Positions 33,887 through 35,175 of a stretch of DNA of 64,000 nt are shown in pieces. The DNA comes from Escherichia phage Mizar. Where the stretch lies: the sequence record PV714129.1. One strand, written 5' to 3'. The notes beneath the pieces are model-generated. The model was not told the origin of the DNA. It did not search any database and saw only the letters and a list, made by a program, of their open reading frames with translations. Every line of letters begins with the position of its first letter. The stretch's first letter is position 1. The translations under genes and the position numbers were made by a program.

Positions 33887-34711
33887 TTAACAATTTATAG
33901 ACCAAGTCCATTTAGACGAATCTAAAGGAAAGTTTTGAATCGTCCACCACGGCTGCATATCAGTTGGACCTGGGGTTCGCCAGGTATATGGAGTACGTGT
34001 TGTCGAGGGGCCACCAATTTGATTAGGCCATGCACCTGGACTTGTTGCACCAGATTCTTTAAGCAAATCCGCCAATCGTTTTAAAAGGTCTTCACGATCT
34101 GAATCTGAATTATTCTTAGGCAGAACCAAACGAGATTCAATATCATCCCATGTGTGTACACGTTGTGCAGTGCGAGGAATATCATCACGTTCACCACGAG
34201 CCAACCAATAAATCGGTACATTAAGAATTTCTGCCGCATGGTCACAGTGATGAGCTAAATCGTCGACGTAACAAATCACGTTGTATTTTGTTTTAGCTAG
34301 TTCGAATAATTGTTCCTTTGAAGAATCATGACCACACATCATTACTTCAGAGAAAGCGCCTGGGAACAAAGCATTCAAATTAAATTGTCTATTCAATCGA
34401 GCATCAATTGAATCACCTAGCGCCGTCACGGCTACAAAATTATAGTCTTCTTTTAGTTTATTGATAACTCGAAGAGCATCCGAATAAGGCGCTAAGTAAC
34501 GAATAAAATCAGAGCGATTATATTTTTCTATTAATTGTTTACCAAGGTTATCGTCAGTATTGAACAGTTTACCAGGAGAAATAAATTTTTCGTCCTGAAT
34601 CATTTTTAAAATATGTTCTAATGGAAGATTATATTTTTGGGCAAAATAAGGAAGTCCAGATTGCCAACTTAAACATACACCATCAATATCAGTCAAAATA
34701 GTAGGCTTCAT
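33887..34711 (-). CDS. hypothetical protein with HAD-like DxDGV motif near N-terminus (30.2 position)
   Basis: 274 aa; N-terminal ILTDIDGVCLSW resembles motif I of haloacid-dehalogenase-family phosphatases/nucleotidases. Confidence 0.5.
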   Translation of the reverse strand: MKPTILTDIDGVCLSWQSGLPYFAQKYNLPLEHILKMIQDEKFISPGKLFNTDDNLGKQLIEKYNRSDFIRYLAPYSDALRVINKLKEDYNFVAVTALGDSIDARLNRQFNLNALFPGAFSEVMMCGHDSSKEQLFELAKTKYNVICYVDDLAHHCDHAAEILNVPIYWLARGERDDIPRTAQRVHTWDDIESRLVLPKNNSDSDREDLLKRLADLLKESGATSPGAWPNQIGGPSTTRTPYTWRTPGPTDMQPWWTIQNFPLDSSKWTWSINC

Positions 34712-35175
34712 AAAGAGTCTCTTAATAGGTTTAACACATCAACAAATTCAGTTTCGGTTAGTATTGTATCATCTTTTGTTAGGTGGCTAGCCATGCTGTG
34801 CTTCAAAATTTTTCCTTTAGAGGCTTGTAAGGCATCACGAAACCCCTTATTTTGGATCGCGGCTTCAAAATATGCATTTGTGTATAATTCTTTCCATGCT
34901 TCAGAGTATCTTGAAAATGGAACTCCTAACCAGAAGAGAGTCCCACGGTCCTGAGCTCTTGCATAAGACCTTCCAGCTTGCTGTGCAGCCAATCCAGACA
35001 ACCCAAATATACGTCTTTGCTGTTCAACATTTTTCACCTTACATCCTTGGAGAAATCCTTCAAGACCTCCGAATTGAATACCATCCATAACAAAAGGCCA
35101 TTGAGCAAAGTTACTTAATGCACATGACGGCCACTTGAAATTACTTCTTATTTCTAATTCAGACATCTTTAACAC
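34708..35175 (-). CDS. NADAR (YbiA/DUF1768)-like protein (30.3 position)
   Basis: 155 aa; SNFAQWPFVMDGIQFGGLEGFLQGCK parallels the SNFAAWP...DG...E.YFQAQK core of E. coli YbiA-type NADAR domains. Confidence 0.5.
   Translation of the reverse strand: MLKMSELEIRSNFKWPSCALSNFAQWPFVMDGIQFGGLEGFLQGCKVKNVEQQRRIFGLSGLAAQQAGRSYARAQDRGTLFWLGVPFSRYSEAWKELYTNAYFEAAIQNKGFRDALQASKGKILKHSMASHLTKDDTILTETEFVDVLNLLRDSL

Follow-up and report, generated by a model that had tools for sequence, protein, structure and literature searches.

A Mosigvirus ortholog of T4 adfN, probably encoding a core-only NADAR-fold ADP-ribosylglycohydrolase that counters DarTG1

The window analyzed here, the whole 64,000-nucleotide stretch of Escherichia phage Mizar (PV714129.1), belongs to a T4-like phage of the genus Mosigvirus (RB69 group), and a 24-kb stretch of it is about 98% identical to several RB69-like Mosigvirus phages. 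On its minus strand, at 34708..35166, lies gene 30.3, or adfN, a coding sequence of 152 amino acids plus a TGA stop that we annotate as a phage-type NADAR ADP-ribosylglycohydrolase. Over the 2.5 kbp around this gene, identity is 98.9% to Escherichia phage LH01 and 97% to phage 348Ecol098PP. Homologs occur in 1510 GenBank phage records, including phages named for Escherichia, Klebsiella, Shigella, Aeromonas, Acinetobacter, Vibrio and others. Many deposited T4-like genomes, the nearest relatives of the window included, label the gene "hypothetical protein".

The reading frame is uninterrupted over 34708..35175 (minus strand) and counts 155 amino acids from a GTG, as the first-pass annotation had reported. 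That length follows from the ORF listing, which takes the first start codon, here the GTG at 35175. We prefer the ATG at 35166, three codons downstream, and thus a protein of 152 amino acids, for three reasons. All annotated homologs (T4, RB69, LH01 and 348Ecol098PP) start at the corresponding ATG, and adfN is 459 nt (152 amino acids) in annotated relatives. The published T4 residue numbers E36 and K43 agree with this start, and its ATG overlaps the stop codon of the upstream 30.4 homolog (ATGTCTGA). Together these favor the ATG over the GTG, and the extra in-frame codons GTG-TTA-AAG (35167..35175, minus strand), which lie 5' of the ATG within the originally reported coordinates, probably do not contribute to the AdfN protein. 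T4 is also annotated with an internal ORF, 30.3'; its frame contains a stop in the window, 348Ecol098PP and RB69, so we do not count it as part of the feature.

The gene sits in a head-to-tail string, 30.5-30.4-adfN-30.2-30.1-30 (DNA ligase), in which starts and stops overlap or nearly abut. Upstream lies a gp30.4 homolog of 70 amino acids (35159..35371, minus strand; phrog_2042) that is 45% identical to T4 gp30.4. The overlap of its stop with the adfN start suggests translational coupling. Downstream, the adfN stop and the 30.2 start codon share nucleotides (ATGA). The gp30.2 homolog (33887..34711, minus strand; 274 amino acids; phrog_420) carries a HAD-type motif, DIDGV, and is named "HAD-like protein" in OR062947. 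Its family had no Pfam match, and the one PDB match of interest, a 5'(3')-deoxyribonucleotidase, was non-significant (E=0.8). No ART or DarT domain was found in the neighbors 30.1, 30.2, 30.4, 30.5, 30.7 and 30.8.

The sole intergenic gap upstream of the 30.5-30 string contains a sigma-70-type promoter-like site, GTTTACA-N18-TATAAT (35583..35612, minus strand). With 11 of 12 consensus positions matched, it is the best such site in 32000..39000. Since the number of sigma-70-like sites in the region (25, against 22.3 expected from shuffled sequence) does not rise above chance, we regard it only as a candidate early promoter. The site resembles T4 early promoters, and the T4 30.x cluster is transcribed early or middle. 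Gene order and the consensus match suggest early expression of adfN along with its 30.x neighbors.

We determined the family of the window protein by profile searches. It matched Pfam PF08010 (Phage_30_3, "Bacteriophage protein GP30.3") with an E-value of 4.9e-69 and 230.9 bits against a cut-off of 36, over the full length of the profile (positions 1-138 of 138). It also matched phrog_652 (E=1e-51). The protein is 100% identical to its LH01 counterpart and 95% identical to T4 gp30.3, which has the same length of 152 amino acids. T4 adfN likewise has 30.4 and 30.2 as its neighbors, lies upstream of DNA ligase and shows the same overlaps of start and stop codons. The T4 protein also carries E36, K43, H123 and the C-terminal helix described below. 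The two copies differ in that T4 is a Tequatrovirus and the window phage a Mosigvirus, and the flanking proteins are much more diverged from T4 (38-70% identity) than AdfN is. Between the two adfN genes there are 51 nucleotide differences and only seven amino acid changes (dS 0.57, dN/dS 0.06). Therefore, this is a real gene under strong constraint.

The first-pass annotation had proposed a YbiA-like NADAR domain from the motif SNFA.WP...DG...E.F.Q.K. This motif is indeed present, as SNFAQWPFVMDGIQFGGLEGFLQGCK in the window protein and as SNFAAWPIKVDGKTWPTSEHYFQAQK in E. coli YbiA, and a pairwise BLASTp of the two proteins gave an E-value of 8e-6 over residues 17-70. More distant relationships were searched with a family profile built from 62 full-length relatives that are 35-87% identical to the window protein. 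Against the PDB, this profile matched YbiA (2b3w, E=0.007) over the same motif. Alignment of the family to YbiA with hhalign gave a probability of 94% (E=1.3e-7) over residues 15-122. The homology thus extends over the whole protein, which removes the earlier caveat that the match was confined to the N-terminal half.

A Pfam search for NADAR (DUF1768, PF08719), which had been suggested as a check, had a mixed outcome. The window protein alone had no match to PF08719 even at E<=10, whereas 23 of the 62 relatives matched it individually (best E=1.5e-7). Searches with the window protein alone also found nothing in NCBIfam, PADLOC or PDB sequences. Because no direct single-sequence NADAR match exists, membership at the sequence level rests on profile, transitive and structural evidence. 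Structure prediction and comparison, also proposed as a check, did recover a YbiA-like fold. The AdfN model is globular, with an alpha-helical core flanked by small beta-sheets, and its top three Foldseek matches are NADAR structures. Fold, catalytic residues and profile homology therefore agree on the NADAR assignment. Of the 62 family members, 37 weakly match PDC-M42C, a candidate-defense model in PADLOC (best E=3e-5), to which the window protein has no match.

The N-terminal NADAR signature spans residues 17-43 (LSNFAQWPFVMDGIQFGGLEGFLQGCK; 35038..35118, minus strand) and aligns to YbiA residues 29-55. It contains the catalytic residues E36 (GAA, 35059..35061, minus strand) and K43 (AAG, 35038..35040, minus strand). 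Both lie within LEGFLQGCK, align to YbiA E48 and K55, and are invariant in the 62 family members. Their equivalents in PnNADAR, E43 and K50, contact the distal ribose and diphosphate of ADP-ribose (PMC11543638). A third invariant residue (n=62), H123 (CAC, 34798..34800, minus strand), marks phage NADARs at the end of the last beta-strand. In the structure model it directly follows the strand formed by residues 120-122. In the hhalign alignment it falls one column past the end (K122/V124), opposite YbiA E125. The C-terminal region, residues 138-152 (34711..34755, minus strand), is intact and contains the terminal alpha-helix, which spans 138-151 in the model.

The known NADAR families differ in the residue at the last-strand position: members of the YbiA family carry Glu there, the BC4488 family associated with DarT has Asp, and phage NADARs have His (PMC11543638). 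The window protein has the sequence and fold features that define the phage NADAR / gp30.3 (AdfN) clade, and it belongs to that clade. It is not a member of the YbiA family, since the conserved last-strand Glu is absent. E. coli YbiA (2B3W) and AdfN have the SNFA-WP-DG-E-F-Q-K motif and the alpha-helical core in common, but the two are about 20% identical, and H123 of AdfN takes the place of YbiA E125. Their settings also differ: YbiA serves metabolism and its gene belongs to a host operon under LexA control, whereas AdfN is a phage counter-defense enzyme.

Nor does the window protein belong to the DarG1 antitoxins (BC4488 family; G. lovleyi 8BAT and the E. coli C7 NADAR), although their chemistry and fold are like those of AdfN. 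DarG1 carries an N-terminal beta-beta-alpha DNA-binding extension that the window AdfN lacks, consisting of the core domain only, and no more than 132 of the 219 residues in 8bat can be aligned to it. In addition, DarG1 has Asp where AdfN has His123, and it is encoded beside darT1, while no darT1 is adjacent to the window adfN. DarG1 is also not replaceable by T4 AdfN in uninfected cells. The absence of a cognate darT, the His for Asp and the missing extension thus separate AdfN from DarG1.

Two other T4 proteins, AdfA (gp61.2) and AdfM (Tk.4 macrodomain), serve the same purpose as AdfN, escape from DarTG abortive infection, and neither is a NADAR. The neutralizing AdfA variant R164H associates with DarT1 and, unlike AdfN, has no enzymatic domain. 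AdfM, also unlike AdfN, is a macrodomain against the thymine-ADPr of DarTG2. By T4 map position, both genes presumably lie outside the window.

The function, fold, catalytic residues and phenotype of AdfN were already published between 2023 and 2025, and the window copy adds no new biology to them. NADARs were shown to hydrolyze the guanine-N2-ADP-ribose made by DarT1, and a phage NADAR group was noted (Schuller et al. 2023, PMC11543638). T4 gp30.3 was then found to remove G-ADPr but not T-ADPr in vitro, and it failed to protect uninfected cells from DarT1 (Toxins 2024, PMC11125620). [quoted passage not shown] In that study, T4 AdfN was necessary and sufficient to overcome DarTG1, and deletion of adfN made T4 and T2 roughly 10^4-fold more sensitive. 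Ectopic AdfN rescued RB69. Purified AdfN stripped ADP-ribose from DarT1-modified DNA in a dot-blot assay, and AdfN did not bind DarT1 (PMC11825919). The substitutions E36A and K43A impaired T4 AdfN, although in the final version of the paper they abolished rescue only partly (PMC11825919). A HIDEN-SEQ transposon screen independently found adfN to be conditionally essential on DarTG1 hosts and non-essential on hosts without DarTG1. The proposal in the first-pass annotation, a counter-defense that reverses guanine ADP-ribosylation by DarT-type toxins, is thus established by genetics and biochemistry for a T4 protein 95% identical to that of the window.

We estimate a probability of about 0.93 that the window gene is the Mosigvirus ortholog of T4 adfN and encodes a minimal, core-only NADAR-fold ADP-ribosylglycohydrolase that counters DarTG1. 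The gene deserves the name adfN, for a NADAR-type guanine ADP-ribosylglycohydrolase and anti-DarTG1 factor. As the mechanism is proposed, adfN and the other 30.x genes would be transcribed together, ahead of DNA replication. Host DarT1, the toxin of DarTG1, would modify guanines of the phage DNA with ADP-ribose at their N2 amino group, and AdfN would hydrolyze the guanine-N2-ADP-ribose bond using E36, K43 and H123. Removal of the adduct would allow phage DNA replication to proceed and defeat the abortive-infection defense. AdfN would neither bind nor inhibit DarT1, and it would be inactive on the thymine-linked ADP-ribose of DarTG2.

AdfN might instead have a main substrate that is broader than, or other than, DarT1-modified DNA, such as guanine-ADPr RNA, adducts of other guanine-targeting ART toxins or off-target nucleic-acid marks left by the phage's own ARTs. 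Guanine-ADPr chemistry is common to all NADAR families, and the T4 phage NADAR does remove G-ADPr from RNA in vitro, but less efficiently than the DarG1-type E. coli C7 NADAR (PMC11833690). Reversal of C-ADPr, by comparison, is tabulated only for the NADAR and YbiA-type families and not for phage NADAR (PMC11833690). An Alt-like ART occurs in the adfN neighborhood in the window, in RB69 and in an Acinetobacter phage. In the window, alt (29787..31874) is three genes away from adfN; however, this gene order is usual for T4-type phages, and the targets of Alt are proteins. Also against a different main substrate is the large and specific DarTG1 phenotype of the adfN deletion, together with the dispensability of adfN where DarTG1 is absent. 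We therefore consider a different main substrate unlikely. A broader substrate range may exist as a further role, although the data can be explained without it.

The poor performance of AdfN outside T-even infection also bears on its substrate, as it indicates that something specific to the T-even context matters. T4 AdfN barely rescues non-T-even phages and acts fully only in T-even infection (PMC11825919). A specificity for hydroxymethyl-cytosine had been proposed in a bioRxiv preprint of 2024 and was withdrawn in the final paper after experiments with T4-GT7. These experiments, in which the phage DNA is unmodified, exclude DNA modification as the cause of the T-even dependence, and the authors therefore suggest that a further T-even protein is needed (PMC11825919).

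We considered whether this T-even partner could be encoded next to adfN, as either the coupled 30.4 or the HAD-type, phosphatase-like 30.2, in a module that would remove and dispose of ADP-ribose. The gene for gp30.2 occurs in 1438 phage genomes compared to 1510 for adfN, with almost the same distribution over genera. It is adjacent to or near adfN in T4-like phages of Acinetobacter, Buttiauxella and Klebsiella (AYL). However, gp30.2 was not found within 4 kbp of adfN in Vibrio, Ralstonia, Shewanella, Agrobacterium and some other Klebsiella phages. Because the adjacency is lost in these distant phages, the linkage may be plain T4-type synteny, and we give the module little credence.

The interpretation as a working adfN further depends on the window allele being intact, since in RB69, a phage of the same genus, adfN carries a frameshift. 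There, an extra T at nucleotide 411 shortens the protein to 137 amino acids and removes the last 15 residues. RB69 is sensitive to DarTG1, and the same truncation lowers the activity of T4 AdfN, showing that the C-terminal helix is needed for full activity (PMC11825919). Truncated or fragmentary homologs are also found in other phages, with proteins of 86-126 amino acids and a partial match, H50. Over the 137 residues they share, the RB69 and window proteins are 97% identical, but the window frame is not truncated. DNA and protein alignments both show that the window lacks the T insertion, which would fall between 34757 and 34756. The full 152 residues are encoded, with the C-terminal helix and the catalytic residues intact. 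The RB69-type insertion is present in only 2 of the 598 phage records that contain this segment, and both are RB69.

Considering the absent frameshift and the purifying selection (dN/dS 0.06), we predict that the window allele is functional, and a decayed copy like that of RB69 is very improbable. The seven differences from T4 AdfN are conservative and none lies at an invariant position, and the window allele likely behaves like T4 AdfN. Since the RB69 insertion is absent and the C-terminal helix complete, the phage is predicted to make functional AdfN and resist DarTG1. Judged from its sequence, it should grow on DarTG1-carrying E. coli, unlike the laboratory strain RB69. This prediction bears on host-range prediction and on the choice of therapy phages.

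The least probable reading is that of a YbiA-like housekeeping N-glycosidase whose substrates are small molecules, such as reactive riboflavin-pathway intermediates, rather than nucleic acids: E. coli YbiA is its closest sequence match and is annotated and known as an N-glycosidase, but the YbiA-family Glu is replaced by His, as in all phage NADARs, and the T4 ortholog is a demonstrated determinant of DarTG1 resistance that works on DNA carrying ADP-ribose.

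Comparison of the proteins encoded across window 33608..37071 with their counterparts in T4 (L002) revealed a mosaic pattern of divergence over this region. Identity to the T4 proteins is 94-95% for AdfN and gp30.7 but only 38-70% for the neighbouring gp30.1, 30.2, 30.4, 30.5 and 30.8. The dS of adfN relative to T4 is 0.57, and therefore selection, not recent transfer, underlies the conservation of adfN.

The T4 annotation includes a further gene, 30.3', which is nested within 30.3 in a different frame and encodes 75 aa (L002:1643-1870). Its counterpart lies in the +1 frame within adfN (window 34926..35030, minus strand), where a stop follows after 34 codons, as it does in RB69 and in phage 348Ecol098PP. 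Because the frame is interrupted by stops in all three phages, 30.3' is not conserved and is probably not a real gene.

The gp30.2 homologue (window 33887..34711, minus strand) contains the HAD phosphatase motif DIDGV near its N-terminus and a C-terminal tail rich in Trp, Pro and Thr. No match was found for this protein in Pfam, and its only PDB match of interest, to 5'(3')-deoxyribonucleotidase, was non-significant (E=0.8). An ATGA overlap suggests that gp30.2 is translationally coupled to adfN. gp30.2 is present in 1438 phage genomes, with a genus distribution that nearly matches that of adfN. Three genes downstream of adfN is an Alt-like ADP-ribosyltransferase gene (window 29787..31874, minus strand), whose proximity to adfN probably reflects conserved synteny only. 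Acinetobacter phage LemonAid has the same neighbourhood of NADAR, 30.2, ligase and Alt-like genes.

At the site where the short gene 30.6 stands in T4 and RB69, the window contains a 204/214-aa ORF (35613..36257, minus strand; phrog_17531) without a match in Pfam. This ORF is found in phages LH01 and 348Ecol098PP and is missing from RB69 and T4; it is a variable insert in the early 30.x cluster. The gap separating this ORF from 30.5 holds a candidate promoter, GTTTACA-N18-TATAAT (window 35583..35612, minus strand), which is the top match to the sigma-70-type consensus across 32-39 kb of the window. This arrangement differs from that of T4, where 30.6 and 30.5 abut without a gap at the matching place.

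Shortened or fragmentary gp30.3 proteins of 86-126 aa occur in several deposited T4-like phages (homologues P0007, P0014, P0017 and P0051). In some T4-like phages all that remains of the gene is its C-terminal third, and phage vB_EcoM-RPN226 has a partial gp30.3 match (H50). These short versions may be natural loss-of-function alleles distinct from the RB69 frameshift, or annotation or assembly artefacts.

The window AdfN protein had no match to the PADLOC candidate defence component PDC-M42C. Weak matches to this component were found in 37 of the 62 aligned full-length gp30.3-family proteins (best E=3e-5). These matches may mean that an uncharacterised candidate for bacterial defence includes a NADAR-like protein.
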